Source: Fibrobacter succinogenes
GTDB lineage: Bacteria; Fibrobacterota; Fibrobacteria; Fibrobacterales; Fibrobacteraceae
DNA: 24,000 nucleotides
Direction of reading: 5' to 3'
NCBI GenBank assembly: GCA_902762795.1
Contig: CACWPM010000030.1
Span: forward strand, 1 to 24,000
A program made the position numbers and the translations under genes. The notes beneath the pieces were generated by a model. That model was not told the DNA's origin, did no database searches, and saw only the letters and a list, made by a program, of their open reading frames with translations. Position 1 is the stretch's first letter. The number at the start of each line of letters is the position of its first letter. Positions 1 through 24,000 of the stretch are shown here, in pieces.

Positions 1-460
1 AGACATTAGCTTCATGACGCACAGAATCCACATGAGCCGTACATTTTAACTGATTTCTAACCATTCGGCAACCACAAGCGGAAACAGAAATCATATGAAC
101 AAAATCAGCCTTCGGATTAAAAAGATGTCCCCCTACAGGATCGTCTCGCACCTCAACAGTCATTAATGATATATCCGTCCCAAAATTAGGGTCCACATGC
201 GAATGAATTAAAAAATCATAAAACAGCTTATCAGGGCCATGATAATGTCTAGTATAACAAGTTTCCCAATCCAAGCCCGTTCCACACGACACAGGATGCG
301 AAGCTTTTTTCATAAGAAGCGGAAATTCCGTCAGTTTATTCACCTGTTCATTCTGGATATCGTTCGCAGCCGTTGACGCCATGGAATTATCCACGCCAGA
401 TTCTGAGCAGCCCATCATAGCCAGCGCTAAAATAGCGGCAGACAATGTTATCTTTTTCAT
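1..460 (-). CDS. Lipoprotein, 5' part only (3' end runs off the left edge); shares its signal peptide and lipobox with the neighbouring lipoprotein genes
   Basis: Absent from the supplied ORF track because it has no in-window stop. My own translation of the minus strand from the ATG at 460..458 gives MKKITLSAAILALAMMGCSESGVDNSMASTAANDIQNEQVNKLTEFPLLMKKASHPVSCGTGLDWETCYTRHYHGPDKLFYDFLIHSHVDPNFGTDISLMTVEVRDDPVGGHLFNPKADFVHMISVSACGCRMVRNQLKCTAHVDSVRHEANV, open through position 2. An AAGGAGA RBS lies 7 nt upstream. The signal peptide is almost identical to that of 632..1315, but the mature part does not obviously align with the paralogs. Confidence 0.7.
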   Translation of the reverse strand, partial: MKKITLSAAILALAMMGCSESGVDNSMASTAANDIQNEQVNKLTEFPLLMKKASHPVSCGTGLDWETCYTRHYHGPDKLFYDFLIHSHVDPNFGTDISLMTVEVRDDPVGGHLFNPKADFVHMISVSACGCRMVRNQLKCTAHVDSVRHEANV

Positions 461-573
461 ATCAATCTCCTTTTTTATTAAATTGGTTAAATATAAAATA
501 AACTATTTATATGTTATTTTCAAGAGTTTATTTTAGTATTTCAATATAAATTTACAAAGTTTATAAAAATTTA

Positions 574-606
574 CAAAAAAAAGATAACCCGGCGGAACGC
601 CGAGTT
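574..606 (-). terminator. Rho-independent terminator downstream of the 632..1315 gene
   Basis: On the minus strand: stem CTCGGCG, loop TTC, stem CGCCGGG (7 bp, 1 mismatch), followed by TTATCTTTTTTTT. Confidence 0.6.
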
Positions 607-631
607 CTTTGCATTCTTTCAACAAAAGAAA

Positions 632-1315
632 TCAGTTCTTATTTTGAAGAGCATAATTCAAAAATCTAATATAGGCCAGAATTCCAGGAACCATATATCT
701 TTGGTACACTTTTTTCGCCACATCGGCACTTAAATTTTTACGATACGTAGCCGATAACGAAACATCACCTCCATTTATAGTAACACTTGCAGCTGCTACT
801 ATACCCACTGGATTACTGGTTGTCGACAGATCAGCGCATTCACGTGCCAATTCTGACGTATAAGAGCCACCCTGCTTTACAGCAAAATGAGATTTCTGGC
901 ATTCACCATCCGACGAACAACCTTGCACGCAAAGCGAGAACTGATGATGAGAAACGGTGTTCCGATACGGATTCCATTCACCCTGTCGTTTATCACTTTT
1001 TTTCGTAATCAAAGACCTAACAGTGTACTGGTGCCCTGCATCATAAGCATCGTCACTCGCATAAACAAAGAAACGATATATTCCGCTATCATCCAAAACT
1101 TGCCCAGACCATTCTGCTCCTGCTTTTTGAAGCGCCAACGGAGAATTAGAGTCCGGGAATTCAGGGATATCTTCGGGAACCACAGTCAATTGTTCCAAGG
1201 CATTTCTCTTTTGAATTTCACTCGTTGAAGGCATCACAGAAAGATCCATGCCAGATTCTGAGCAGCCCATCATTGCCAAAGAAAATACAGCAGCAGACAA
1301 CGTAATTTTTTTCAT
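632..1315 (-). CDS. Lipoprotein of unknown function, a paralog of the 1512-2922 genes
   Basis: Track ORF 632..1360. I prefer the internal start MKKITLSAAVFSLAMMGCSESG (ATG at 1315) because GGAGAAAATAATG supplies an RBS and the paralogs start at the same place. Motifs shared with the paralogs: CVQGCSSDGECQKS vs CVRDCDDEGNCKDN, and the C-terminus VYQRYMVPG...ALQNKN vs VYQKYLAAPLQNH. Confidence 0.8.
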   Translation of the reverse strand: MKKITLSAAVFSLAMMGCSESGMDLSVMPSTSEIQKRNALEQLTVVPEDIPEFPDSNSPLALQKAGAEWSGQVLDDSGIYRFFVYASDDAYDAGHQYTVRSLITKKSDKRQGEWNPYRNTVSHHQFSLCVQGCSSDGECQKSHFAVKQGGSYTSELARECADLSTTSNPVGIVAAASVTINGGDVSLSATYRKNLSADVAKKVYQRYMVPGILAYIRFLNYALQNKN

Positions 1316-1451
1316 TATTTTCTCCTTCCGAATTAAATTCGATGAACAAAATATAATCATCTTTTACAACTTTGTAAAGATAAAATTATACAGAATTTTA
1401 ACTTTATCAACATTAAATAAAGTTTTATAGAAACAACATATAACATACGCA

Positions 1452-1483
1452 CAAAAAAAGAACCCGGCAAAGCAAGCCGAGTT
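1452..1483 (-). terminator. Rho-independent terminator downstream of the gene ending at 1512
   Basis: On the minus strand: stem AACTCGGC, loop TTGCTTT, stem GCCGGGTT (1 mismatch), followed by CTTTTTTTG. Confidence 0.6.
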
Positions 1484-1511
1484 CATTATAGCCAAATGGG
1501 ACCAGCAAAGA

Positions 1512-2175
1512 TTAGTGGTTTTGCAAAGGTGCTGCGAGATATTTCTGATAAACAAGCAAAGCCTGATTTCTATTTTTCAATCCACTATAAGACGAACCGG
1601 TCAAGACAATTTCATCAGGCTTTCCCGCATTCACAACAGCGGCATAATTGGAAACAGTCCCCAACTCGCCATCACCACCTGCCTGGCACTGTTGATCGAA
1701 CCACGGGAAAGGTTCATTTTGGAGGTCTTTAGGTATCGGCAGAAACGTATATGGATCATGATATTGAGCTATTTCATTACTACTATTCTCACAGTTCCCT
1801 TCATCATCACAACCTCGAACACAAACCGTATATACATGAAGCATATCAACTTTTAGACTCGAATTAATATCAGGAGAACCTACCCAAACTTTTCCATGAC
1901 CACCGTATTTCGTTACTGTTGACTGTATTCCAATTCGATAACGTATTCCACCAATTCTTTCAGAAAGATCAAAAAAAGCGTAAGTATCAGGAAAATAATC
2001 ACAAATAAGCGTAGTAGTCTGTTTTTTTTAAAACAGGGACAAAATCCGCCGAATACTGATTTTGTACATCAATAATTTCGCGCGTTGTTGAAGCAACAGA
2101 ATTATCAACGCCCATATCAGAGCAGCCCATCATAAACAATGCCGAAAGCACGGCAGACAATGTTATCTTCTTCAT
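1512..2175 (-). pseudogene. Lipoprotein, downstream copy of the tandem duplication; frameshifted at an A8 homopolymer (either a phase-OFF allele or a pseudogene)
   Basis: From the ATG at 2175 the frame reads MKKITLSAVLSALFMMGCSDMGVDNS...VPVLKKTDYYAYL and stops at 1999. From codon CAG (2021..2019) the -1 frame is open to the TAA at 1512. It reads QTTTLICDYFPDTYAFFDLSERIGGIRYRIGIQSTVTKYGGHGKVWVGSPDINSSLKVDMLHVYTVCVRGCDDEGNC...LAAPLQNH and is colinear with the upstream copy. The only frame-breaking difference is T8 at 2022..2029 versus T7 at 2770..2776. Confidence 0.6.
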
Positions 2176-3024
2176 ATAAACCTCCTTATTTGTTATATAA
2201 AGTATTATAAATATACATTCATTTTTACAAAAACTCTCATTTTTTTTACACAACAACATATTATAAGCAAAATCAAAAGGTGCTGCGAGATATTTCTGAT
2301 AAACAAGCAAGGCCTGATTCATATTTTTAAATCCACTTCCTACACTATAAGTTGAACCGGTCAAGACAATTTCATCAGGCTTTCCTGCATTCACAACAGC
2401 GGCATAATAGGAAATAGTCCCCAACTCGCCATCACCTTTTTTTAGCTGGCACTGTTGATCGAACCAGTGAAGTTCTTGACCGTCTTTAGGCATCGGCAAA
2501 AACGTATATGAATCATCATATCGAACTACACCACTATTATCCTTACAGTTTCCTTCATCATCACAATCTCGAACACAAACCGTATATACATGAAGCATAT
2601 CAACTTTTAGACTCGAATTAATATCAGGAGAACCTATCCAAACTTTTCCATGACCACCGTTTTCTGATACTGTCGACGCTATTCCAATTGAATAACGCTT
2701 CCCACCAATTCTTTCAGAAGTATCAAAAAAAGAACTAGTAAACCGATCACAAATAAACGTAGTAGTCTGTTTTTTTAAAACAGGCACAAAATCCGCCGAA
2801 TACTGATTTTGTACATCAGTAATTTCTCGCGTTGTTGAAGCAACAGAATTATTAACGCCCATATCAGAGCAGCCCATCATAAACAATGCCGAAAGCACGG
2901 CAGACAATGTTATCTTCTTCATATTAACCTCCTTATTTGTTATATAAAGTATTATAAATATACATTCATTTTTACAAAAACTCTCATTTTTTTTACACAA
3001 CAACATATTATAAGCAAAATCAAA
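1527..3024. repeat. Direct tandem duplication, 2 x ~750 bp (copy B 1527..2277, copy A 2278..3024), each holding promoter, RBS and a lipoprotein gene
   Basis: 2176..2277 and 2923..3024 differ at 1 position in 102 nt. The signal-peptide coding part differs at about 4 of 142 nt. The junction is at 2277/2278 (aatcaaa|aggtgctgcgag). It joins upstream sequence (3018..3024 aatcaaa) to the gene's 3' end (1527.. aggtgctgcgag), with caaa microhomology. Confidence 0.9.
1999..2922 (-). CDS. Lipoprotein, upstream copy of the tandem duplication; it has no stop of its own and reads through the duplicated promoter into the 5' end of the next copy
   Basis: Track ORF 1999..3006. The likely start is the ATG at 2922 (MKKITLSAVLSALFMMGCSDMG), preceded by TAAGGAGGTTAAT. 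The part homologous to the family ends near 2278 (..QKYLAAP). The tail FDFAYNMLLCKKNESFCKNECIFIILYITNKEVYMKKITL... is translated promoter, RBS and signal-peptide sequence from the second copy. Confidence 0.65.
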   Translation of the reverse strand: MKKITLSAVLSALFMMGCSDMGVNNSVASTTREITDVQNQYSADFVPVLKKQTTTFICDRFTSSFFDTSERIGGKRYSIGIASTVSENGGHGKVWIGSPDINSSLKVDMLHVYTVCVRDCDDEGNCKDNSGVVRYDDSYTFLPMPKDGQELHWFDQQCQLKKGDGELGTISYYAAVVNAGKPDEIVLTGSTYSVGSGFKNMNQALLVYQKYLAAPFDFAYNMLLCKKNESFCKNECIFIILYITNKEVYMKKITLSAVLSALFMMGCSDMGVDNSVASTTREIIDVQNQYSADFVPVLKKTDYYAYL

Positions 3025-4090: not shown

Positions 4091-6709
4091 ATGGCAGAGC
4101 AAAATAAGCGTATTCTCAAAGATTTTTTAGAAGAACTGATTAAAAAAGTTAACGGACACCGTTCAGATATCTCGTCCGAAGATGTTTTGGAACAATTTAT
4201 GGAGTGGGCCGAAGCCCGCGGGACAACGTTGTACCCAGCGCAAGAAGAAGCGATTTTGGAACTTTTGGACGGCAAGAACGTTATCCTCAACACGCCGACC
4301 GGAAGTGGCAAATCCATGGTCGCGCTAGCTCTGCATTTTGACAGTCTTGTGCACAATCGACGAAGCGTTTATACGTGCCCCATCAAGGCGCTCGTGAACG
4401 AAAAATGGATGGCGCTCTGCAAGGAATTCGGCGCCGAGAACGTCGGACTTTCGACCGGCGATGCAACCGTGAACCGCGACGCGCCTATCATTTGCTGCAC
4501 AGCAGAAATTCTTTCGAACATGGCGCTCTGCGAAGGCGAAACGCTTTCCATCACGGATATCGTGATGGACGAGTTCCATTACTACAGCGACAAGGAGCGC
4601 GGTGTCGCCTGGCAAGTTCCGCTTTTGACACTCCCGCAATCGCGCTTCCTTTTGATGAGCGCGACCGTCGGTGCAACGGAATTTTTCGAACGCGACATGA
4701 CCAAGCATACAGGCCGCGAGTCCGTGACCGTCCGCTCCACGCAACGCCCGGTGCCTCTAGACTTTAGCTACAGCACGACAGAAATTTCGACAGAAGTGCA
4801 AAAACTCGTGAACGAAGGCAAGGCTCCTGTTTATGTTGTTCACTTTACGCAGGCCGCCGCCGCAAGCAATGCGCAGAACTTCATGAGTCTGGACCTCTGC
4901 ACCAAGGAAGAAAAAGTCAAGATCAACGAAGCGATTAAAGAGGTTCGCTTTTCTAGCCCGTACGGCCCGGATGTCAAGCGTTGGCTCAAGCAAGGCATAG
5001 GGATTCACCATGCAGGACTTTTGCCGAAGTACCGCATTCTCTGCGAAAAGTTGGCACAGCAAGGTTTGCTCAAAGTCATTTGCGGAACGGACACGCTCGG
5101 TGTCGGCGTGAACGTCCCCATCCGCACCGTCCTTTTCACACAACTTTGCAAGTACAGTGGCGACAAGACCGCCATTTTGACCGCACGAGATTTCCACCAG
5201 ATCGCGGGCCGCGCAGGCCGTAAAGGTTTTGACAATGTCGGCTACGTCGTTGCACAAGCGCCTGAACACGTCATCGAAAATCTGAAACTCGAAGCGAAGT
5301 CGCGCACGACCGGAAAAAAATTCCAAAAGAGGAAACCGCCTGAACATGGCTACATTCCGTTCGACGAAAATACATTCAAGCGCTTGATTGAAGCCTCACC
5401 GGAACCGCTCACGTCTAGCTTCCAGGTGAACCACGGAATGCTTTTGAACATCTTGAGCCGCCCGACGGACGGTTGCCGAGCCATGCGGTCGCTCCTCAAA
5501 GATTGCCACGAAAGCGCAGCGAGCAAAAAGCAGTTGCAGCACCGCGCCTTCCTCTTGTTCAAGAGCCTCGTCGAAAAGAAGATTATCGAATTTGTGCCTG
5601 CCGTTGCACCGGGATACAGCCACTTGCGCGTGAACATGGACCTGCAAGACGATTTTTCGATGAACCAGCCGCTTTCGCTGTACCTGCTCGACACATTGCC
5701 GAAACTCGACAAGGACTCGCCTGAATACGCGCTCGATGTAATTACTTTATGCGAAAGCATCCTTGAAAATCCCGATGCAATTTTGCGCATCCAGCAGAGC
5801 AAAGCACGCGATGCCCGCATGAACGAGCTCAAGGCGCAAGGCATGGAATACAACCAGCGTCTCGAAGAACTCGAAAAAGTCGAATACCCGAAACCGTTGC
5901 GAGACTTTATTTACGATACATTCAACGCATTCGCCGATGTCCATCCGTGGGTAGATGAAAACATCGAACCCAAGTCCATTGTGCGCGAGATGTTCGAGAA
6001 CTTCAGCACGTTCAGCGGCTACGTGAAACAGTACAATTTGCAGCGCATGGAAGCGATCTTGCTGCGCCATTTGAACGGCGTTTACAAGGTGCTTTCACAA
6101 ACTGTTCCCGACGGCTACAAGAACGAAGAACTCTTGGAAATGCAGGACTATCTCGGTGAAATGATACGCCGCGTGGACTCGAGCCTCTTGGAAGAATGGG
6201 AAAAGATGGCGCACCCGGAAGATTACCAAAAACGCTTGGACGAAGGCACCGCCGAAGACGAAGCCGAGAAAGCATTCGGCGCAGACAAGGCCGCCGCAGA
6301 CATCACCTACGACAAAAAGCGGTTCCTCAGCATGATCCGTCAGCGCATTTTCCAAATTATGATGAGCCTCTCCAAGCAAGATTTCGCAGATGTCCTGGAC
6401 AGCCTCGCCGACGATCTTGCCGAAGGCGAACTTTTGGCAGATGCCGAAGGCACGCCGTGGACAGAAAAACGCCTGCTCGAAATCATGGCCGCCTACACTG
6501 CAGAACACCACAGGTTCCGCATGGACGTAGAAGGACGTGCGCTAGCCCACACAATCGTCACTTACGAAGGCAACATCATGCACATTCAGCAAATGTTGCA
6601 GGACGAGGAAGGATTTAACGACTGGAGCATCGATTTCACGGTAAATCTTGACGAATGTCACGAAGCGGGAATGCCTTTAATAAAAATGGCTCGTATTGGA
6701 GAAGTATAG
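4091..6709 (+). CDS. Ski2-like DEAD/DEAH-box (superfamily 2) helicase with a long C-terminal extension, possibly DUF3516-type
   Basis: 872 aa. Helicase motifs: [21 protein letters not shown] (MSATVG), and [12 protein letters not shown]. The C-terminal ~400 aa is helical and acidic. The DUF3516 assignment is from memory of the family architecture and has not been verified. Confidence 0.88.
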
Positions 6710-17062: not shown

Positions 17063-19165
17063 ATGAGATTCAATACCTTTGGCATCGCCGCAAGCTCACT
17101 GCTCTTAGCCGCAGCTTCGGCTTTTGCGCTTCCCAAGGCAACGGAAATTTTCCCCAAAATGGGCCTCGGCTACAACATCGGCAACACGATGGAAGTTCCG
17201 GGAAACCAAGGCGGCCCGACCGGATGGGGCAACCCATTCCCGGACTCCGCTTACGTGAAGGCTATCAAGGACGCCGGTTTCAACACGGTGCGCATCCCTT
17301 GCGCCTGGAATAGCCACTCCTCTAACGGCACAATCAACGCCGGCTGGCTCGACTCCGTCAAGACTGTCGTCGATCTCGTCATCAGCAACGGCATGTACGC
17401 CATCTTAAACAGCCACTGGGACGAAGGCTGGCTCGAAGACCACGTGTTCGACGGTGAAGGCTACGACAAGACCGGTCTCGTGAACAGCTCCGCAGCAGCA
17501 GTCGCCGCCAAGCAGGAATCTTACTGGAAGCAAATCGCCACCAAGTTCGCTGAATATGACGAGCACTTGATTTTCGCCTCCGCCAACGAACCGGGCGTGA
17601 ACGACCCGTGGAACGGCGGTGCCGATAACGGCCAATGGGCATTCGATTCCAAGCGCATGACCATCCTCAAGCAATTCCATGAAGCATGCCTCAAAGGAGT
17701 GCGCTCCACCGGCGGCAACAACGCCACACGCATCGTGGTCGTGCAGTCGCCGCGTACCGAAATCGACAAGGCCCCGCTCCTCTCCGAACAGTACCCGACC
17801 GACCCGGCAGGCGAAGGCTACACAATGGCCGAAGTCCACTTCTACCCCTACCAGTTCTCGCTCATGACTGACGGCGACGAAGACTGGGGCAAGATGTTCT
17901 ACTACTGGGAAGATCAAAACCCGGGCAACGATGCCCCGCACACCTGTTCCGGCACCGCACTCGGATCCAAGCAGTCCATCGACAAACTGTTCAGCGGCCT
18001 CAAGACTCGTTTCTACGATAAGGGCATTCCGGTCGTGATCGGCGAAATGGGCGCCGTCAAACGCCTCGACCTTCTCTCCGGCGACAATTTGAAAGTCCAT
18101 TTGAAGGCTCGCGCCGCTTGGTACGGCTACACGGTCGCAGCAGCCAAGAAGAACGGCCTCGTCCCTTGCGTTTGGGACACAGGCGATGAAGGCAACGGCA
18201 ACTTCACCATCATCCGCCGCCAGGTACACAAGTACCAGGGCAAGGTGGGCGACATCACCGACATAGAAACCCTAAACGCCATGCGCGAAGCCTATGGACA
18301 AGCAGCACTTCCAGGAAACACCATCGACTCCACCGTCAAAGAACATACAGAAATTCTCGATGGCGACATGGCTCTTCACATCTCCTACAAGACCGTTCAG
18401 GCAGACTCTAGCGAAGCAGGCACCATGCGTATCGACATCAACAAGAGCTGGAGCCAGTACGTCGCAATCTCCTTTGACATGCGAGTCGCAGGCGATATCG
18501 CAGGCCCGTGTTTGGACACCTCCCGCGACGGTTGCGGCGAATACGGCTGGGCAAGCGTCTCCGTATTCAACATGAGCGGCGAATGGAAATGGAACGAAGT
18601 CTCTCTCGGCAACGTCGAGGACCTCGGCACCCTCAAGAACTACAAGATCGAATTCGGCGAAGAAGAAAGGCAGCTCGCATTCACGGACCTTACTAAGGTA
18701 AACGCCATCGGCATCAACGTTTACGGCACGCAATTTACCGGCGACATGTACCTCGACAATCTACTCCTCTGGAAAGCTGACGGCACCGCAGACACGCTCC
18801 AGAATTTCAATACCAAAAAGCCCAAACTCGAAGGCACCGCCAAGGGCGAACTCATCAAGGCGAACGCAACGGGTGACTGGGACACAGATACAAAGAGCGA
18901 CATTTGCATGCCAAGCATCGCCAAGGCGAGAAGCCTCCGCGTAAACGTGCAGCCGGGAGTTGTCAGCGCAACCTTCACCACCAGCAAAGCCTCTCACGGC
19001 ACAGCAACGCTCATGAACACACTCGGCCAGACTATCGCACAGCAGAGCTTCAACACAAAGGCCGGCGCCAACGAAGTCAAGTTCAGCACAAACTTCCGTG
19101 GCGCGGCAGTTCTCATCGTCAAAACGGGTAGCCAAAAAATCGTGCAACAAGTAAACCTCCGCTAA
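17063..19165 (+). CDS. Glycoside hydrolase family 5 endo-beta-1,4-glucanase with a CBM-like beta-sandwich module and a C-terminal secretion/sorting domain
   Basis: 700 aa with an AAGGAG RBS and the signal peptide MRFNTFGIAASSLLLAAASAFA. GH5 hallmarks are GYNIGNTME, FNTVRIPCAW, the acid/base in IFASANEP and the nucleophile in VVIGEMGA. Residues ~425-575 look like a jelly-roll CBM (ends GDMYLDNLLLWK). The last ~75 aa (VSATFTTSKASHGTATLMNTLGQTIAQQSF..AAVLIVKTGSQKIVQQVNLR) resemble a T9SS-type CTD or the basic terminal domain of Fibrobacter enzymes. Confidence 0.93.
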   Translation: MRFNTFGIAASSLLLAAASAFALPKATEIFPKMGLGYNIGNTMEVPGNQGGPTGWGNPFPDSAYVKAIKDAGFNTVRIPCAWNSHSSNGTINAGWLDSVKTVVDLVISNGMYAILNSHWDEGWLEDHVFDGEGYDKTGLVNSSAAAVAAKQESYWKQIATKFAEYDEHLIFASANEPGVNDPWNGGADNGQWAFDSKRMTILKQFHEACLKGVRSTGGNNATRIVVVQSPRTEIDKAPLLSEQYPTDPAGEGYTMAEVHFYPYQFSLMTDGDEDWGKMFYYWEDQNPGNDAPHTCSGTALGSKQSIDKLFSGLKTRFYDKGIPVVIGEMGAVKRLDLLSGDNLKVHLKARAAWYGYTVAAAKKNGLVPCVWDTGDEGNGNFTIIRRQVHKYQGKVGDITDIETLNAMREAYGQAALPGNTIDSTVKEHTEILDGDMALHISYKTVQADSSEAGTMRIDINKSWSQYVAISFDMRVAGDIAGPCLDTSRDGCGEYGWASVSVFNMSGEWKWNEVSLGNVEDLGTLKNYKIEFGEEERQLAFTDLTKVNAIGINVYGTQFTGDMYLDNLLLWKADGTADTLQNFNTKKPKLEGTAKGELIKANATGDWDTDTKSDICMPSIAKARSLRVNVQPGVVSATFTTSKASHGTATLMNTLGQTIAQQSFNTKAGANEVKFSTNFRGAAVLIVKTGSQKIVQQVNLR

Positions 19166-19193: not shown

Positions 19194-19215
19194 GGGCTCG
19201 GCTTTCGCCGGGCCC
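19194..19215. terminator. GC-rich hairpin between convergent genes, probably a bidirectional terminator
   Basis: GGGCTCGGC, loop TTTC, GCCGGGCCC (9-bp stem, 1 mismatch). On the minus strand it is followed by TTTTCTCGTT, and on the plus strand by CTTATTGCTT. Confidence 0.6.
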
Positions 19216-19333: not shown

Positions 19334-20149
19334 CTACATATCGGGTTTATTCACAAAACTCGAAGACTGCTGATAGCTCAATGGACGTTCGCCAAGAGTT
19401 CCGAGACTCGTGATATTGAACTTAAATTCACCCGGAAAAGCCTGTATTCTGAACCTTATCGCAACAAGCTGTTTTGCAGCCATCTCACCGGCATTAAGCA
19501 TCCAATTTTCAGGAATATATGAATTCGCCCACATAGGGAACTTGAAGTCTCTCCATTCATAACACCTCGTCACAAAGCTCCCGCTCTTCGGTAAATTGAC
19601 CGATGGCAAAGCATAACCAAATTCCAATTCAAGCTGCGGACCCAAATCAAGCACCAAAGTAGGAGCCGCTTCCGAAGCATAGCCAATGCACAGACCGCCC
19701 CAGTTCGAGACATCGACAGGAATAGGATCGCCCACGTCATTCGTAGCGATCGAAAAACCGACACCCACAAACGGACTATAAGTCAGCGTACCTTTTTTCA
19801 AAACCGCCGTTCCACAAATTCCACCGCACGCATCCACAACAGGCGCCAAAGAATCTGCTCCGGTCCCTAACTCCACGGGCCAAGCTATATACGATTCGCC
19901 GCCATCCACCGCGTCCGTCTGCATTTCCCAGAACCAACGGCCGTCTCCAACTGCATTTTTCGGCCACGACTCCGCATAAGCATAGCGGGCTGTATTGACA
20001 GCAAATTCGCCCGCCTGAGGATTCCACAAATCGCCAACAGTATCTGCCACCGTATTCGGTTCCACCGACGTACCAGACACATTATTGTCGGAACAAGCCC
20101 CTGCAAAAAGCGCCACCGAGCCGCATATCATAGAAAGTTTTTTATTCAT
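19334..20149 (-). CDS. Lipoprotein with one copy of an uncharacterised ~215-aa domain (third gene of cassette 1)
   Basis: 271 aa with an AGGAG RBS in the 14-nt gap after the upstream gene. The signal peptide and lipobox are MNKKLSMICGSVALFAGAC|SDNNVSGTSVEPNT. Domain motifs are GDLWNP, DGGESYIAWP, CGGICGTAVL, PFVGVGF, PVDVSNWGGLC, LPSVNLPK, CYEWRDFKFPMW, AAKQLVAIRF and GEFKFNITSLGT. Confidence 0.85.
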   Translation of the reverse strand: MNKKLSMICGSVALFAGACSDNNVSGTSVEPNTVADTVGDLWNPQAGEFAVNTARYAYAESWPKNAVGDGRWFWEMQTDAVDGGESYIAWPVELGTGADSLAPVVDACGGICGTAVLKKGTLTYSPFVGVGFSIATNDVGDPIPVDVSNWGGLCIGYASEAAPTLVLDLGPQLELEFGYALPSVNLPKSGSFVTRCYEWRDFKFPMWANSYIPENWMLNAGEMAAKQLVAIRFRIQAFPGEFKFNITSLGTLGERPLSYQQSSSFVNKPDM

Positions 20150-20163
20150 CCTCGACCACTCCT

Positions 20164-21105
20164 CTATTGACGATTCGTCCCAACCGCCACGACATTAAAT
20201 TTATAGGAACCCGGTTTCGCCTGAATTTTGAACTTAACCATCACCAACCGCGCAGCAGCCATTGCTCCAGCGTTTTTCAGCCATCCGGATTCTTCAAGCC
20301 AATTCTGGTCGACCGTATTCGCCAATTTGACCCACGAAGGCAATTCAAAGTCGTCCCAATGGAAACACTTTTGCATAGTCACTTCCGTTTTGGGAAGCGA
20401 CACCGAGGGTAAACCCCACCCAAGCAAAGCGTCCAACGAATCGCCAAGACCAAGTTCAAGCGTAAGCGCCACATCCGACATATAGGCAACACAAATTCCG
20501 CCCCAATTCGACACGTCAACCGGAACGAGCTTTGGATCATTTTCATCGCTATAATCTGTAACCATCGTAAAACCGACGTACACAAACGGATCGTAATCCA
20601 AAGAACCTTTTTCCAAAACAGCCGTTCCGCAAAAGCCCGAACATTCAACAATAACGGGATTCCAGACATCATCGGAATAACTATTGCCCAATTCCACCGG
20701 CCACACAATCTTCGACAGGCCTCCATCTCCGTCATCGAAGGCTGCGAACCAATTTCCGTATTCCATATGGGGAATAAGCGCGTTGACCTCTTTATCCATA
20801 TAATGGACCACGTCAACGACTACATCGTAACTGCCTCCCGTCCACAAATCACCAGAAGCATGGACGCACCCGCCCATATCGCTACTCTTGCACAAGACAG
20901 GAGCAACCGAAGAACTGCTCCAATCCGTGTTCGCACTGCTCAACGAAACGTCAAACAACGAGCTAGAAAAAGCATCGGCAGAAGAACTCGATGAAGCCTG
21001 CGCCATCGTATTCGGCTCCACCGATGTACCAGACACCTTATCGCCAGAACACGCACACGCCAAAAGCGCAATCACGCAAAAAGCCATACACAAGTTCTTG
21101 TTCAT
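20164..21105 (-). CDS. Lipoprotein with one copy of the same domain (second gene of cassette 1)
   Basis: Track ORF 20164..21186. By analogy with its paralogs, the start is MNKNLCMAFCVIALLACAC|SGDKVSGTSVEPNT (ATG at 21105). An alternative ATG at 21120 forms an ATGA overlap with the upstream stop. A Ser-rich linker is followed by GDLWTG, DGGLSKIVWP, CSGFCGTAVL, PFVYVGF, PVDVSNWGGIC, LPSVSLPK, CFHWDDFELPSW and GSYKFNVVAVGT. Confidence 0.85.
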   Translation of the reverse strand: MNKNLCMAFCVIALLACACSGDKVSGTSVEPNTMAQASSSSSADAFSSSLFDVSLSSANTDWSSSSVAPVLCKSSDMGGCVHASGDLWTGGSYDVVVDVVHYMDKEVNALIPHMEYGNWFAAFDDGDGGLSKIVWPVELGNSYSDDVWNPVIVECSGFCGTAVLEKGSLDYDPFVYVGFTMVTDYSDENDPKLVPVDVSNWGGICVAYMSDVALTLELGLGDSLDALLGWGLPSVSLPKTEVTMQKCFHWDDFELPSWVKLANTVDQNWLEESGWLKNAGAMAAARLVMVKFKIQAKPGSYKFNVVAVGTNRQ

Positions 21106-21116
21106 CTCAAGCGACC

Positions 21117-21935
21117 TCATAACACCTCTTTGGAAAGAGGAAACAGTTGCAAATTCAGCCTGTAAACTTGTTTGATATCGCAGCAACCTTCAGCTATCGC
21201 CGTAATTTTCTTGCGACATTCGTCCAGTTCGCGAACAATGCGTTCGTACGCCTCATGGTCAACACCCATCGTGATGCCCGTAATGTTGCGCTCATTTGCG
21301 GTAAAGCGGTCCAGTGCATCTACCGCGAGATAGCCCATTTGACGATGCATCGAACGGATTGCAAGCGGCAACCCCTCCTTGGAGCCTTCCACAGATTTTT
21401 CCGTCTGCTCGTAAACGTTATCTTCAACTAGCTTAAGAAAGCCGGCACGTTCCAAAAACTGGAGCGACTTGCGCACTTCCGTCGCAGAGACATCCTGCGT
21501 GCACGCCTTGGCAATCTCGCTCGGCACGGCCCCCTGCATCATCGGGGCAAGTTCGCGAATGACCGGATTTTTCCAACTATCGTAATATTCAAAAGCGTCC
21601 TTATCGACAACACGAACCTTATGCTCAAAGGCGATAGACTGCATCTGCTCTAAAAACGTTTTCCTAACATCGTCCGTCTTCGCATTGCCAAACTGGACCA
21701 TCGCCTCGAAATAGGTCACCTCGTAGCCTACAAGCCCCATCACCTTAGCCACGCGCCCCATAGTCGTCTTGCTCAAATTGGTTTTGCTTTCACTAACCAT
21801 TTTGAGATACGAGGGCGAAACAAACCCTGCTATTTTCGCAAATTCACGCCACGAAAATGCAGAAGTACGCTTGCGCTCTTCATAATAGTCGCGCAAATAA
21901 GCGTGGTAATTCTGGTATTCAACGATCGGCCTCAT
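21117..21935 (-). CDS. TIGR02147-like cytoplasmic protein with an N-terminal HTH-like region (first gene of cassette 1)
   Basis: Track ORF 21117..21965 begins at a GTG, and I prefer the ATG at 21935 (MRPIVEYQNYHAYLRDYYEERKRTSAFSWREFAKIAGFVSPSYLKMVSESKTNLS). A second winged-helix-like stretch is ATEVRKSLQFLERAGFLK. There is no signal peptide or TM segment. The family call is from memory of the Fibrobacter paralogous family (TIGR02147 / DUF4423). Confidence 0.8.
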   Translation of the reverse strand: MRPIVEYQNYHAYLRDYYEERKRTSAFSWREFAKIAGFVSPSYLKMVSESKTNLSKTTMGRVAKVMGLVGYEVTYFEAMVQFGNAKTDDVRKTFLEQMQSIAFEHKVRVVDKDAFEYYDSWKNPVIRELAPMMQGAVPSEIAKACTQDVSATEVRKSLQFLERAGFLKLVEDNVYEQTEKSVEGSKEGLPLAIRSMHRQMGYLAVDALDRFTANERNITGITMGVDHEAYERIVRELDECRKKITAIAEGCCDIKQVYRLNLQLFPLSKEVL

Positions 21936-22071
21936 ACAACCGAAATATATATTCCAAGAATACACCCGTCAATAGATTATAGTACATTTTTTGTCTTTTT
22001 ATTTAAATTTTAACAATTAAATGTACTTTAGAAACATATTTCATAAAATATAGTACATTCATGCAGCACAC

Positions 22072-22099
22072 AAAAAAAAGGTCCGGCATCAGCCGGACC
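22072..22099 (-). terminator. Strong rho-independent terminator separating cassette 2 from cassette 1
   Basis: On the minus strand: GGTCCGGC, loop TGAT, GCCGGACC (perfect 8-bp GC-rich stem), followed by TTTTTTTTG. It lies 23 nt after the stop at 22122. Confidence 0.8.
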
Positions 22100-22121
22100 C
22101 TCCTTTCCCCCTAAAAATTTT

Positions 22122-23750
22122 CTAATCGCGATTCGATCCAAGGGCCTTTATATCGAAAGCTCCCACGTTGCCATTTTCGCCTTCGATAATGAACCTGACC
22201 GCCACAGCCCTTTTGGCAACATCTTCGCCCGATATCCTGTACTTTTCGGGATTCGGCAACTTGTCCAAATAAGGCTGGGTGAATTCATTCCATTTATAGC
22301 ACTTAACGATTTCTAAAGAAGTCGTTTTGGGTAAAACAACAGAAGGCCATTTATAAATATCCAAGTCAGCATCTTCGATAGCGCTTCCCGAAGTCAAGGT
22401 ATCCGTGCTCATTTCCAACGACACCGGATCCAAATCCATCCTTATAGGATGATCCGACTTATAGGTAACACAGATTCCGCCCCAATTAGAGATATCGACC
22501 GGCACGCCCTGGTTAGAATCATTTTGAGCAAGCTGGAACCCAAACAACGCATACGGCTTTCTAGAAAGTTCGCCCTGGTCCAATATGACATTAAAGCAGC
22601 ATAGGCTACCGCACGCATCGACAATCACATCAAAAGGCGCAACGTGTCCATCGTACTGATCGCTCCAATACCAGTCAAAAATCGAACTCCCGCCTTCATT
22701 TCGATCCGTGTACTCGAACCATTGACCATTTCGCAAATGGCTCCACGAGGAATCCGCATAAAGAGTCGTTTTGACATTAGTCTCACGAGCCTCACCATCC
22801 CACAAATCACGGGGATAATCGTCACCTGCATACACGCTCCCAAACGGATCGGTTCCCGAAGAAGAACTGGACAACGGTTCGGAATAAGTCCCTAACGACA
22901 TGATATTGAACTTATATTCTCCAGGTTGCCCCGCGAATTCGATTCTAAACGCAACTAGCTGTTTCGCCGCTTTTGCACCCACATCGGTTTTCCAGTATTC
23001 CGGTTCATCTTGCATCCACGAAGGTATCTGGAAGTCGCTCCATTTACGGCATATCGTCTTAGGTACACCATCCTTTGTTCTAGGCAAAGTAACAGCCGGA
23101 TAGGCGAAAATGGGCCAGGGAGTTTCATCAAGCAACGCCAACGAGTCGCGAACAGCCAATTGCAAGCTAAACGACCGATCCGATGTAAGAGTTACGCAAA
23201 TACCACCCCAATCAGAAACATCGACTGGAACAGGATTGCCACTACTATCCTTCGCAAGCGTAAAGCCGACATACGCAAAAGGATTTTCTTGTGCCCCAGT
23301 AGAACTTTCTTTCAAAACGACTGTCCCACAAATGCCATTGCACGCTTCAACAATAGCCCGTTCGTCTTTCGAGCTCACATAATCCATCGGCCAAACGATA
23401 GACGACGAGCCCCCATTTTCGGCATCCGTTGCCATTACCCAGTGGCCATCAGTTTTTGCACCCGCCGGCAACGACGCCGCATAACGAGCAACATTAATGG
23501 TAAAATCGCCCGCACTCGGATTCCACAAATCGCCATTAAGCTCATAACGCCCCGACGAAGATTCCACTACCGAGCTCGATAAAGATTCCACCACCGAACT
23601 CGACGAAGCCACGGGAACAGAACTCGACGAAGAATTATACGCCAACAGCACATTGGGATCTTCCGATGAGCCCGATACATTACTGTCCGAGCAGCCAAAA
23701 GCCGCAAGCGAAAGCGCTCCGGCGCACGCCATATATAGTCTCTTATTCAT
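22122..23750 (-). CDS. Lipoprotein with two tandem copies of the uncharacterised domain (second gene of cassette 2)
   Basis: Track ORF 22122..23768. The paralog-consistent start is MNKRLYMACAGALSLAAFGC|SDSNVSGSSEDPN (ATG at 23750). The N-terminal domain has GDLWNPSAGDF...GEYKFNIMSLGT. The C-terminal domain has RDLWDGEARE...NEGGSSIFDW, CGSLCCFNVIL, PYALFGF, PVDISNWGGICV, WPSVVLPK, CYKWNEFTQPY and GAFDIKALGS. Confidence 0.85.
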   Translation of the reverse strand: MNKRLYMACAGALSLAAFGCSDSNVSGSSEDPNVLLAYNSSSSSVPVASSSSVVESLSSSVVESSSGRYELNGDLWNPSAGDFTINVARYAASLPAGAKTDGHWVMATDAENGGSSSIVWPMDYVSSKDERAIVEACNGICGTVVLKESSTGAQENPFAYVGFTLAKDSSGNPVPVDVSDWGGICVTLTSDRSFSLQLAVRDSLALLDETPWPIFAYPAVTLPRTKDGVPKTICRKWSDFQIPSWMQDEPEYWKTDVGAKAAKQLVAFRIEFAGQPGEYKFNIMSLGTYSEPLSSSSSGTDPFGSVYAGDDYPRDLWDGEARETNVKTTLYADSSWSHLRNGQWFEYTDRNEGGSSIFDWYWSDQYDGHVAPFDVIVDACGSLCCFNVILDQGELSRKPYALFGFQLAQNDSNQGVPVDISNWGGICVTYKSDHPIRMDLDPVSLEMSTDTLTSGSAIEDADLDIYKWPSVVLPKTTSLEIVKCYKWNEFTQPYLDKLPNPEKYRISGEDVAKRAVAVRFIIEGENGNVGAFDIKALGSNRD

Positions 23751-23751
23751 A

Positions 23752-24000
23752 CTATTCCTCCGTTTCACATACGACTCTTTGAGTCAAAGGGAAAAAATGT
23801 AAATTCAATCTGCAAACCTGATCTAGCTTACCGCACCTCGCCGCTATAGAAATAACCTTCTTGCGGCAAGCATCGAGTTCCTTCACGATTTCTTCGTAAC
23901 CTTCACGGTTTACACCTAAAGTAACGCCAGTGACGTTGCGGTCTTCGGGGCCAAACCGGTCAATAGATTCTATACCAAGGCGCCCCATTTCACGATGCAT
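23752..24000 (-). CDS. TIGR02147-like protein, C-terminal part only (5' end lies beyond the right edge; first gene of cassette 2)
   Basis: The 82 aa align with the C-terminus of 21117..21935: MHREMGRLGIESIDRFGPEDRNVTGVTLGVNREGYEEIVKELDACRKKVISIAA..RLNLHFFPLT vs MHRQMGYLAVDALDRFTANERNITGITMGVDHEAYERIVRELDECRKKITAIAE..RLNLQLFPLS. Confidence 0.8.
   Translation of the reverse strand: MHREMGRLGIESIDRFGPEDRNVTGVTLGVNREGYEEIVKELDACRKKVISIAARCGKLDQVCRLNLHFFPLTQRVVCETEE

Follow-up and report, generated by a model that had tools for sequence, protein, structure and literature searches.

Several described systems resemble parts of the locus studied here. Polysaccharide utilisation loci of Bacteroidota follow a similar logic, in which a dedicated regulator is combined with a lipid-anchored, lectin-like surface protein. 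Like these loci, the cassettes reported here occur many times per genome and often near glycoside hydrolase genes. Unlike them, the cassettes lack a SusC/SusD pair as well as any HTCS, SusR or ECF-sigma regulator, a minimal cassette consists of two genes, and glycan binding is only predicted. XRE/Cro regulators (SinR, C.AhdI, C.BclI, ClgR and DdrO) superpose on the N-terminal ~65-85 residues of our regulator (TMt 0.54-0.72), and palindromic operators upstream of the regulator's own gene are shared with the autoregulating C-proteins. Our regulator differs from the XRE/Cro group in an added MarR-like winged helix with long helices, and in its site layout, where a full palindrome is accompanied by a single half-site at a distance of 72 bp. 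MarR proteins bind DNA through the winged helix alone; in our regulator an XRE-type helix-turn-helix precedes the winged helix. The regulator belongs to TIGR02147, named 'Fsuc_second', a Fibrobacter succinogenes paralogous family that corresponds to Pfam DUF4423. In our literature search, TIGR02147 was unmentioned and the only trace of DUF4423 was one entry in a table of proteomics data. The search found no paper giving TIGR02147 a DNA-binding fold, operators, a leaderless promoter or a lipoprotein partner, and no description of the pairing.

The window, a stretch of 24,000 nucleotides of DNA from a rumen Fibrobacter succinogenes, contains two adjoining operon-like units on the minus strand, each made of a TIGR02147 gene, one or more lipoprotein genes and a hairpin. 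All open reading frames named in a preliminary description of this DNA were present in the ORF list of the window at the coordinates used here. Cassette 2 comprises the 3' end of a subfamily-B regulator gene (23752..24000; last 82 codons, truncated by the window edge), a gene for a 542-aa lipoprotein with two domain copies (22122..23750) and an intrinsic terminator (22072..22106). Cassette 1 comprises a subfamily-A regulator gene (21117..21935; 272 aa) and the genes of lipoprotein 1 (20164..21105; 313 aa) and lipoprotein 2 (19334..20149; 271 aa), each with one domain copy. The lipoproteins were assigned from their ORFs and family HMM hits. Spacing between the cassette genes was -4 to +14 nt. 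The junction between the cassette-1 regulator and lipoprotein 1 is either an ATGA overlap (alternative ATG at 21120) or a gap of +11 nt to the MNK start, and lipoprotein 2 follows at +14 nt with an AGGAG. The two-domain lipoprotein starts +1 nt past the stop of its regulator, with GGAGGA upstream. SD-like sequences of the GGAGG type precede the lipoprotein genes only, not the regulator gene. RNA folding bore out the strong terminator proposed for cassette 2, a 15-bp stem (-23.3 kcal/mol, z = -4.96) with a U8 tract after it. The consensus scan omitted this terminator, and folding revealed it clearly. The hairpin at 19194..19215 (-19.1 kcal/mol, z = -2.8), between cassette 1 and a convergent GH5 gene, is probably a bidirectional terminator.

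The preliminary description had assigned the first genes to TIGR02147/DUF4423, and profile searches agreed. The product of 21117-21935(-) gave a full-length match to TIGR02147 (2.6e-93; 312 bits, cutoff 50) and also matched PF14394 (DUF4423) at 8.9e-27. The 82-aa product of the 23752-24000(-) fragment matched the C-terminal part of both models (TIGR02147 2.1e-20, model positions 198-271; PF14394 3.6e-08) and shared 53% identity with the C-terminal end of the cassette-1 regulator, as expected of the proposed paralogs. In contigs L001 and L002, the full-length cassette-2 regulator has 277 aa. The preliminary description had taken the repeated arrangement as duplication of the whole module. The cassettes are indeed paralogous, but the paralogues are ancient and the duplication is not recent: identity between the two regulators is ~65%, and the operator sequence of one differs from that of the other.

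The AlphaFold (AF2) model of the cassette-1 regulator (pLDDT 84.6) contained both segments suggested earlier, each as a DNA-binding-type fold: an XRE/Cro-like helix-turn-helix with its recognition helix at ~43-48, and a MarR-like winged helix (~138-184) plus two long C-terminal helices. Local matches of the first part were DNA-bound SinR (TMt 0.71, rmsd 2.9 A), C.AhdI (TMt 0.72) and ClgR. The DUF4423 part repeatedly matched the folds of MarR, AdcR, MepR, SlyA and MecI locally, with E values of only 0.1-0.5 and no sequence match. Whole-model matches were weak (best E 0.1), and none of the Pfam HTH models scored above threshold against this regulator. The data suggest that the TIGR02147 protein works as a dimeric transcription factor, whose N-terminal helix-turn-helix would read upstream sites and control its own operon. 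The winged helix and long helices of the DUF4423 part would mediate dimerisation, and effector sensing by this part is probable.

A sigma-70-type promoter, TTGACG-17-TATATT (21944..21972, minus strand), was found by consensus scan upstream of the cassette-1 regulator. It was the best promoter match in the region (10/12). In the window, 8 nt separate the end of its -10 hexamer from the ATG, against 7 nt in most orthologues. All 34 rumen Fibrobacter loci had the -35 element at -36/-37 and the -10 element at -13/-14. Environmental relatives showed a clear -10 peak at -12 to -14, with about a third lacking the -13 TATATT. The promoter lies so close to the regulator ATG that a ribosome-binding site would not fit between them. 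With the -10 element ending ~7-8 nt before the ATG, a leaderless or near-leaderless regulator mRNA is therefore predicted.

Candidate operators were identified upstream of this promoter by locus comparison. The sequence AATGTACT occurred 3 times in the 24-kb window (0.52 expected), and all matches were in 21981-22059, inside a stretch of 80 nt upstream of the gene. The proximal half-site (21981..21988, minus strand; AATGTACT, hexamer at about -50) is separated by 8 nt from the -35 element downstream of it. It was present at -50/-51 in 30/30 related loci. The right half of a distal operator (22052..22059, minus strand; AATGTACT, hexamer at -122) has a degenerate left half at ~22060-22070 in the window, and 16 other subfamily-A loci carry a full palindrome, ATACAGTACA-N3-TGTACTATAT, at the matching distal position. 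An extra inverted copy of the half-site (22020..22027, plus strand; AGTACATT on the gene strand, at -92) was limited to the window's strain and the near-identical contig L001. The layout of a distal palindrome at -131/-122 and a proximal half-site at -50 was fixed in 30 loci, with 72-73 bp, about seven helical turns, between the two sites. We lean slightly towards loop-assisted repression relieved by a signal, rather than activation, because the core promoter comes close to consensus and the UP-element/alpha-CTD zone contains the proximal site.

The operator sequence changed with the regulator class. Subfamily-A loci (n = 17) carried only TGTACT/AGTACA, and subfamily-B loci (n = 14) only TGTATC/GATACA. 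Only 6 residues split the two regulator classes perfectly, and 3 of these (39, 46 and 52) lie around the recognition helix. Most of this covariation reflects a single division into two clades, and only locus L018 breaks the confounding. The L018 regulator belongs to the A clade (78% identical) yet carries B-type residues at the discriminating positions near the recognition helix; its distal repeat is GTATCA/TGATAC, and its proximal site, TGTTCT, is not of B type. We infer that residues 39, 46 and 52 set operator specificity.

A single domain of ~200-230 aa occurs four times in the three lipoprotein ORFs, with 35-48% identity between copies. This agrees with the shared domain noticed earlier. 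When aligned, the four copies have 45 invariant columns, with four Cys and several Trp among them. Pfam and NCBIfam profiles gave no match to these ORFs, and CBM sequence models gave none to the domain. The cassette-2 lipoprotein has a lipobox (..AAFGC), the motif GSSEDPN and a Ser-rich linker before its two domain copies. Lipoprotein 1 has a lipobox, the motif GTSVEPN and a Ser-rich linker, and lipoprotein 2 has a lipobox (..FAGAC) and GTSVEPN. These features suggest export and lipidation, and the proteins are probably surface-exposed rather than periplasmic. The AF2 model of lipoprotein 2 (pLDDT 84.4) was a beta-sandwich, with CBM11 (E 1.9e-05, TMt 0.56), CIA30, CBM29, CBM30 and CBM61 as best Foldseek hits (E 2e-5 to 1e-3, TMt 0.41-0.56). 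The likeness was modest (TM 0.3-0.56, rmsd 7-9 A, 9-14% identity). The domain is rich in conserved Trp, a point of likeness to these CBMs. It differs from them in its larger size and four conserved Cys, and it is found in free-standing lipoproteins or in T9SS cargo, not attached to enzymes. The fold alone does not prove glycan binding. Domain paralogues with a T9SS secretion tail adjoin GH5 and GH8 genes, which together with the CBM11/CBM29/CBM30-like model lends support to the glycan-binding role suggested in the preliminary description.

Adjacency to GH5 had also been read as a functional hint. The convergent GH5 cellulase gene (17063..19165, plus strand; PF00150 5.3e-50, weak T9SS-tail match to TIGR04183 at 0.0099) stands beside the cassettes in 20/22 Fibrobacter loci. 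The adjacency is conserved synteny, which extends to PolA, and not evidence of co-function. XRE-HTH first genes are typical of toxin-antitoxin or anti-phage modules, and the cassettes are iterated and variable; in such modules an XRE-type antitoxin or regulator precedes an effector. This reading is disfavoured and hardly credible: PADLOC hits were found in 0/4 proteins, the downstream genes encode not cytoplasmic effectors but exported lipoproteins of lectin-like fold, and the locus holds one chromosomal position across species.

The regulator-lipoprotein adjacency extends well beyond this locus. It was kept in 22 Fibrobacter genome loci and in 9/9 distant relatives examined, and among 80 TIGR02147 genes sampled from the phylum, a scripted count found at least 76 (~95%) to be followed by a lipoprotein gene; further pairs were seen by eye in L033 and L076. 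The modal junction was the ATGA overlap. Such tight translational coupling would give co-production of both proteins, as would suit a TIGR02147 protein acting as a cytoplasmic chaperone or targeting partner for the lipoprotein instead of a transcription factor. This alternative, raised in the preliminary description as a partner needed for production, is without support and very improbable: the regulator model contains two DNA-binding-type folds, conserved operators switch with the paralogue at fixed promoter positions, and domain paralogues without a TIGR02147 partner are made in L009, L027 and L037.

Partner lipoproteins were of several types: the new domain, CarboxypepD_reg+DUF2341+LamG, and PKD repeats with an unassigned C-terminal region. 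Only the N-terminus, with signal peptide, Cys and the post-cysteine motif G-T/S-S/T-x-x-x-N, was common to all of them. An XRE-type regulator directly upstream of an exported protein with such a constant N-terminus recalls an RRNPP-like loop, in which a peptide from the signal peptide or N-terminus is re-imported and bound by the regulator. We consider this improbable: the regulator has no TPR peptide-binding domain, its C-terminal part modelling as a winged helix with helices; the partners are large multidomain proteins rather than short pro-peptides; no linked peptide transporter or processing protease lies beside the cassettes; and the motif is retained on the mature lipoprotein, because it is located past the lipidated Cys.

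Across Fibrobacterota, the regulator is conserved while the lipoprotein partner is swapped and diverges fast. Between species, regulators were 81-88% identical and partner lipoproteins 39-42%. This rapid divergence, domain numbers from 1 to 4, tandem arrays of two or three cassettes (L001, L035, L047 and L054), a private operator for every paralogue and an A/B cassette order that varies between species would also fit a surface-variation switch. Here the regulators would activate their own operons through their private operators and give bistable ON/OFF expression. Lipoprotein sets would then vary from cell to cell, for example as a means to evade phages, protozoa or antibodies, and would not serve as a response to substrate. 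We believe that this is unlikely. The locus showed no invertible element, recombinase or hypermutable repeat, the near-consensus core promoter has no obvious need for an activator, and glycan-binding surface proteins are also expected to diverge fast. CAZyme genes lay near most of the distant cassettes, and such neighbourhoods together with the CBM-like fold favour substrate-related roles.

On balance, we believe that the cassettes are probably self-contained operons that regulate themselves and encode surface lipoproteins for glycan binding or adhesion. Each would form an operon in which a single regulator gene is followed by one to three lipoprotein genes. On their Ser-rich tethers, the lipoproteins would display between one and four beta-sandwich modules, rich in Trp and stabilised by disulfides, which may bind plant-cell-wall glycans or mediate adhesion. 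The pairing gives TIGR02147, a family without an assigned function, its first testable function.

The minus-strand gene at 21117-21935 encodes a 272-aa protein of NCBIfam family TIGR02147 (312.4 bits, 2.6e-93; curated cutoff 50 bits), and its residues 1-269 correspond to positions 1-271 of the 272-position model. PF14394 (DUF4423) matched residues 105-267 with 94.3 bits (8.9e-27; gathering threshold 30 bits). The 82-codon fragment at 23752-24000 (minus strand), cut by the window edge, was also matched by TIGR02147 (73.3 bits, model positions 198-271 only) and by PF14394 (33.8 bits, above the 30-bit threshold). It is 53% identical to the C-terminus of the complete regulator. The preliminary description had assigned the first gene of each cassette to this family and had regarded the two as paralogues; the profile matches and the identity confirm both points, and every gene was recovered in the ORF listing at the coordinates given there. 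The window proteins belong to a known yet uncharacterised family.

The structure of the regulator was predicted with AlphaFold (AF2) from an alignment of 71 diverse relatives (pLDDT 84.6). The model consists of a five-helix domain at the N-terminus, a helix-helix-wing unit at about residues 138-184, and two long C-terminal helices. In this predicted model, the N-terminal domain shows a Cro/cI-type fold (helices 10-24, 29-36, 43-48, 56-65, and 71-84), with 43-48 as the predicted recognition helix. Foldseek superposed the modelled N-terminus locally on DNA-bound SinR (TMt 0.71, rmsd 2.9 A) and on C.AhdI (TMt 0.72, rmsd 2.4 A), and further local matches were C.BclI, ClgR, and DdrO. Compared with the XRE family, the five-helix fold is matched in the model, but a match to an XRE sequence model is absent: Pfam HTH_3/HTH_XRE-type models did not match the regulator at E <= 0.01. 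The Pfam MarR model gave no match either, and the sole further Pfam match, TrmB (0.0013, 18.9 bits), was below its cutoff of 25.6. The DUF4423 part repeatedly matched MarR, AdcR, MepR, SlyA, and MecI in Foldseek; the matches to MarR, AdcR, and MepR were weak (E 0.1-0.5, TMt 0.3-0.4). No full-length analogue of the regulator was found in the PDB by Foldseek (best E 0.1), and a sequence search against solved structures returned no match for the regulator or the lipoprotein domain. The pair might also be read as an RRNPP-like secreted-signal loop. RRNPP regulators combine an HTH with a TPR domain and a short pro-peptide gene, whereas no TPR peptide-binding domain was found in the TIGR02147 regulator by Pfam or in the AF2 model, and its partners are proteins of 270-970 aa instead of a short pro-peptide.

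Thirty upstream regions were analysed for operators, with positions counted from the regulator ATG. In subfamily A, to which the regulator at 21117-21935 belongs, the halves of a distal palindrome, ATACAGTACA-N3-TGTACTATAT, lie at -131 and -122, and a lone TGTACT lies at -50, which is 8 nt 5' of the -35 element. The layout and positions in subfamily B (that of the fragment at 23752-24000) are identical, but the sequences are AAATGATACA-TT-TGTATCATTT and TGTATC. The partition of the hexamers is perfect, with only the A type in 17 loci and only the B type in 14. The A and B regulators are approximately 65% identical and differ at roughly 95 positions, yet just six residues discriminate both classes perfectly. 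Three of the six (39, 46, and 52) are located around the predicted recognition helix. One comparison locus, L018, breaks the clade confounding of the operator/residue covariation: its regulator, A-like overall (78% identical), has T39, L46, and S52, and the distal repeat there reads GTATCA...TGATAC. Because the operators at fixed positions switch with the paralogue, they indirectly support sequence-specific binding. The TIGR02147 regulator very probably binds DNA sequence-specifically, and the comparative operator evidence argues for this more strongly than the fold matches do.

The proximal site lies 72-73 bp from the right half of the distal palindrome, approximately seven helical turns away, so that cooperative or looped binding would be possible. 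In the window, AATGTACT occurs three times, all in 21981-22059, against 0.52 occurrences expected per 24 kb. The left half of the distal operator is degenerate in the window strain, and an additional inverted copy is present at -92. Alignment of locus L024 (positions 5990-6000), from one Fibrobacter MAG, with L014 revealed a deletion of ~155 bp between short A-rich repeats in L024. The first ~34 codons of the regulator are lost together with its promoter and the proximal operator; the distal palindrome and a four-domain lipoprotein gene are intact. Either L024 is a naturally occurring variant that has lost its regulator, or the deletion is an artefact of assembly.

The top promoter match in the region was TTGACG-17-TATATT at 21972-21944 (10/12). 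In the rumen Fibrobacter loci (34/34), the -35 element starts at -36/-37 and the -10 element at -13/-14 relative to the ATG. Among 54 environmental relatives, TAnAnT peaks at -12 to -14, with 24 occurrences versus at most 3 at any other position. The choice of start codon is secure, since the regulator N-terminus aligned with position 1 of the TIGR02147 model. Only ~7 nt separate the -10 element from the ATG, so the regulator mRNA is predicted to be leaderless or near-leaderless. The coupled lipoprotein genes are predicted to use SD-like sites, and an AGGAG/GGAGGA-type sequence precedes every lipoprotein start in the window. The gene spacing is as tight as had been claimed: in cassette 1 the regulator gene overlaps the first lipoprotein gene in an ATGA (or precedes it by 11 nt) and the second lipoprotein gene follows after 14 nt, and the gap in cassette 2 is 1 nt. 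The hairpins reported to close both units indeed fold strongly: the one with a U8 tail at 22072-22106 reaches -23.3 kcal/mol (z = -4.96), and that of cassette 1 reaches -19.1 kcal/mol. The 22072-22106 hairpin was missed by a consensus terminator scan despite its strong folding, and negatives of that scan are untrustworthy here. Rfam gave no match in the window.

We believe that an autoregulated operon is the best-supported reading of the cassette. A TIGR02147 dimer would read a private operator through its XRE-type HTH and would control its own gene and the coupled surface lipoprotein(s). As for the sign of control, loop-assisted repression is slightly favoured, because the core promoter is near consensus and the proximal site lies in the UP-element zone.

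The three lipoproteins of the window are encoded on the minus strand at 20164-21105 and 19334-20149 (cassette 1) and at 22122-23750 (cassette 2). Their lipoboxes, read directly, end in LLACAC, LFAGAC, and LAAFGC, respectively, each followed by S, by which they are predicted bacterial lipoproteins; a signal peptide and a lipobox with Cys were likewise present in 76 partner proteins. The preliminary description held that these proteins were made from one common domain, and this was correct. Together they contain four copies of a domain of ~200-230 aa, 35-48% identical, with 45 invariant columns that include four Cys and several Trp. The window lipoproteins had no match in Pfam or NCBIfam, and Pfam domain models, CBM_11 included, did not match any of 48 members of the domain family even at E <= 1. 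A model built from the 48 sequences is a beta-sandwich (pLDDT 84.4, pTM 0.78). The closest PDB fold was CBM11 of C. thermocellum Lic26A-Cel5E (1v0a; E 1.9e-05, TMt 0.56, rmsd 8.9 A, 14% identity), and other top folds were the related CIA30/NDUFAF1 fold, CBM29, CBM30, and CBM61; these PDB matches are of modest similarity (rmsd 7-9 A, 9-14% identity). The homologues found, 119 in total, were all from Fibrobacter or metagenome contigs.

Proteins with the new domain occur in two forms. The first consists of a lipobox, a Ser-rich linker, and the domain(s); the second consists of an ordinary signal peptide, the domain, and a T9SS sorting tail. The tail (PF18962 / TIGR04183) was present in 12 of the 48 paralogues, all 12 without a lipobox, and was absent from the three window lipoproteins in Pfam and NCBIfam searches. 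In Fibrobacter sp. UWB11 (L037:4838-8027), three tandem T9SS-tailed genes are flanked by a GH5 gene and a GH8 gene, and the trio has no TIGR02147 gene in its vicinity. That the domain also serves as T9SS cargo argues for an extracellular function. We infer a role in carbohydrate binding or adhesion, with which the fold and the conserved Cys and Trp residues agree.

Lipoproteins adjacent to TIGR02147 genes share a second feature. The motif G-[TSG]-[ST]-x-x-x-N lies 3-20 residues past the lipobox Cys in essentially all of them, whatever their globular domains (e.g., GTSVEPN, GSSEDPN, GTTDTGN, and GSSVTGN). It was seen in the three window lipoproteins and in the partner genes of loci L007-L089; 69 of 76 partners have the strict pattern, and the remainder are near variants. 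The motif was absent from ~20 lipoproteins of the same loci that do not adjoin a TIGR02147 gene, among them the stand-alone new-domain lipoproteins of L009 and L027. The N-termini are cassette-type-specific, with GTS[VT]EPN in A and GSSEDPN in B. Profile-profile alignment (hhalign) of the Fibrobacter partners and the DUF2341/LamG partners of distant regulators was confined to the N-terminal stretch of signal peptide and post-Cys motif (33 columns), and homology of the new domain to the DUF2341/LamG partners was rejected. The motif may serve to sort or tether the lipoproteins.

The TIGR02147 family comprises 6,966 clusters at 50% identity (E <= 0.001). In nine distant relatives (27-46% identical) from Fibrobacter, Chitinispirillaceae, and further lineages, the next gene encodes a lipoprotein in 9/9 cases, overlapping or within 33 nt. 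The usual partner domains are CarboxypepD_reg, DUF2341, and Laminin_G_3; the partner in L028 has CarboxypepD_reg and PKD repeats, followed by a C-terminal region without assignment. A metagenome scan with the regulator alignment added 51 loci. When all non-redundant loci were screened automatically, a lipoprotein gene was directly downstream of 76 of 80 TIGR02147 genes, and the modal junction was the ATGA overlap. Among the four misses, the partners in L033 and L076 are lipoproteins by eye, and in L046 the next gene is another TIGR02147 gene. With this tandem pair (L046:265-2131), which has no lipoprotein gene between its members, L046 is among the few loci that depart from the pairing. Tandem arrays were also found, with three cassettes in L001 and L047 and two in L035 and L054. 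The regulator-lipoprotein adjacency thus extends beyond the window, and pairing with a lipoprotein is a family-wide rule.

The pair could alternatively be a toxin-antitoxin or defence module, but the four window proteins had no match among the PADLOC models. Another proposal is that the TIGR02147 protein is a chaperone. The chaperone, toxin-antitoxin, and RRNPP readings collide with the folds, the operators, the PADLOC null, or the regulator-free paralogues.

Within 6 kb of most distant cassettes, GH16, laminarinase, GH88, arabinofuranosidase, GH10, CE15, or GH5 genes were found; some of these neighbours are co-directional with short gaps. In L031 (8441-11783), L032 (8523-12855), and L034 (8650-11588), co-directional glycoside hydrolase genes lie closely 3' of the lipoprotein gene and encode a GH16 with a T9SS tail, a LAM55-type laminarinase, three arabinofuranosidases, and a GH88. 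These genes may enlarge the operon to a small cluster for polysaccharide utilisation. A Bacteroidota-type PUL has a SusC-like TonB-dependent transporter and an adjacent SusD-like lipoprotein, whereas the cassettes lack them: no SusC/SusD Pfam family was found in the larger ORFs of the window or in the called genes of L029-L038.

The array occupies a fixed slot in the chromosome, with a malic-enzyme gene on one side and a convergent GH5 gene, then PolA, on the other. The slot was seen in contigs with an identical regulator and in 22 loci from Fibrobacter genomes, a sample drawn with a one-protein query (relatives 65-83% identical and one distant locus). It contains one to three cassettes per genome, each with one to three lipoprotein genes and one to four domain copies, and the order of A and B varies between species. 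The variable order and number indicate that the cassette behaves as a unit of rearrangement. By sequence comparison, the two cassette types are old paralogues. Across species, regulators are 81-88% identical and partner lipoproteins 39-42%. The cassettes could also form a bistable surface-variation switch, a rival to the autoregulated operon.

The GH5 cellulase in the window (17063-19165, plus strand) continues past the catalytic domain with ~300 aa that no Pfam model matches, and it shows weak similarity to the T9SS sorting tail (TIGR04183, E 0.0099). A lipoprotein domain in its C-terminal region was considered and rejected, as there is no sequence relation. Three tandem paralogous small lipoproteins (MKKITLSA...MMGC followed by S) are encoded at 1-3006 on the minus strand (ORFs ~1-460, 632-1360, and 1999-3006), where GC is low (35-39% vs ~49% elsewhere); neither of the two scanned had a Pfam match.

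Our functional conclusions on the cassettes are all inferred from sequence data, structural models, and comparisons. As a kind of system, a regulator and its target encoded together are ordinary. In a literature search, the strict regulator-lipoprotein coupling, the paralogue-switching operators, the leaderless geometry, the new CBM-like domain, and the common post-Cys motif were not found described. Searches on TIGR02147, DUF4423, DUF2341, and Fibrobacter leaderless mRNAs, lipoproteins, regulators, and lipoprotein export signal returned nothing relevant. The TIGRFAMs notes on TIGR02147 may mention gene neighbours.

Fibrobacter is among the most effective rumen cellulose degraders. To our knowledge, it has neither a cellulosome nor Sus-type PULs, and its means of recognising plant fibre and of holding on to it are still unsettled. 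One possibility, which we put forward tentatively and consider rather doubtful, is that a TIGR02147 regulator and a coupled lectin-like lipoprotein form the basic sensing/display unit of Fibrobacterota, present in many copies per genome, as a counterpart of the Bacteroidota PUL regulator/SGBP pairs. Every regulator would then have an operator of its own and be translated from a leaderless mRNA; its target would be a single glycan-binding protein at the surface, in some cases together with neighbouring glycoside hydrolases, and the post-Cys motif G-T/S-S/T-x-x-x-N would be a new lineage-specific surface sorting/tether signal. The analysis gives TIGR02147 (~7,000 clusters at 50% identity, function unassigned) a testable role as a sequence-specific autoregulating transcription factor, and proposes as its targets a family of CBM-like, lipid-anchored proteins of the cell surface that has no name as yet. 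The predictions are exact for the operator, the promoter, and the specificity residues. If the pairing is substrate-responsive, it would show how polysaccharide recognition is organised in a whole phylum.
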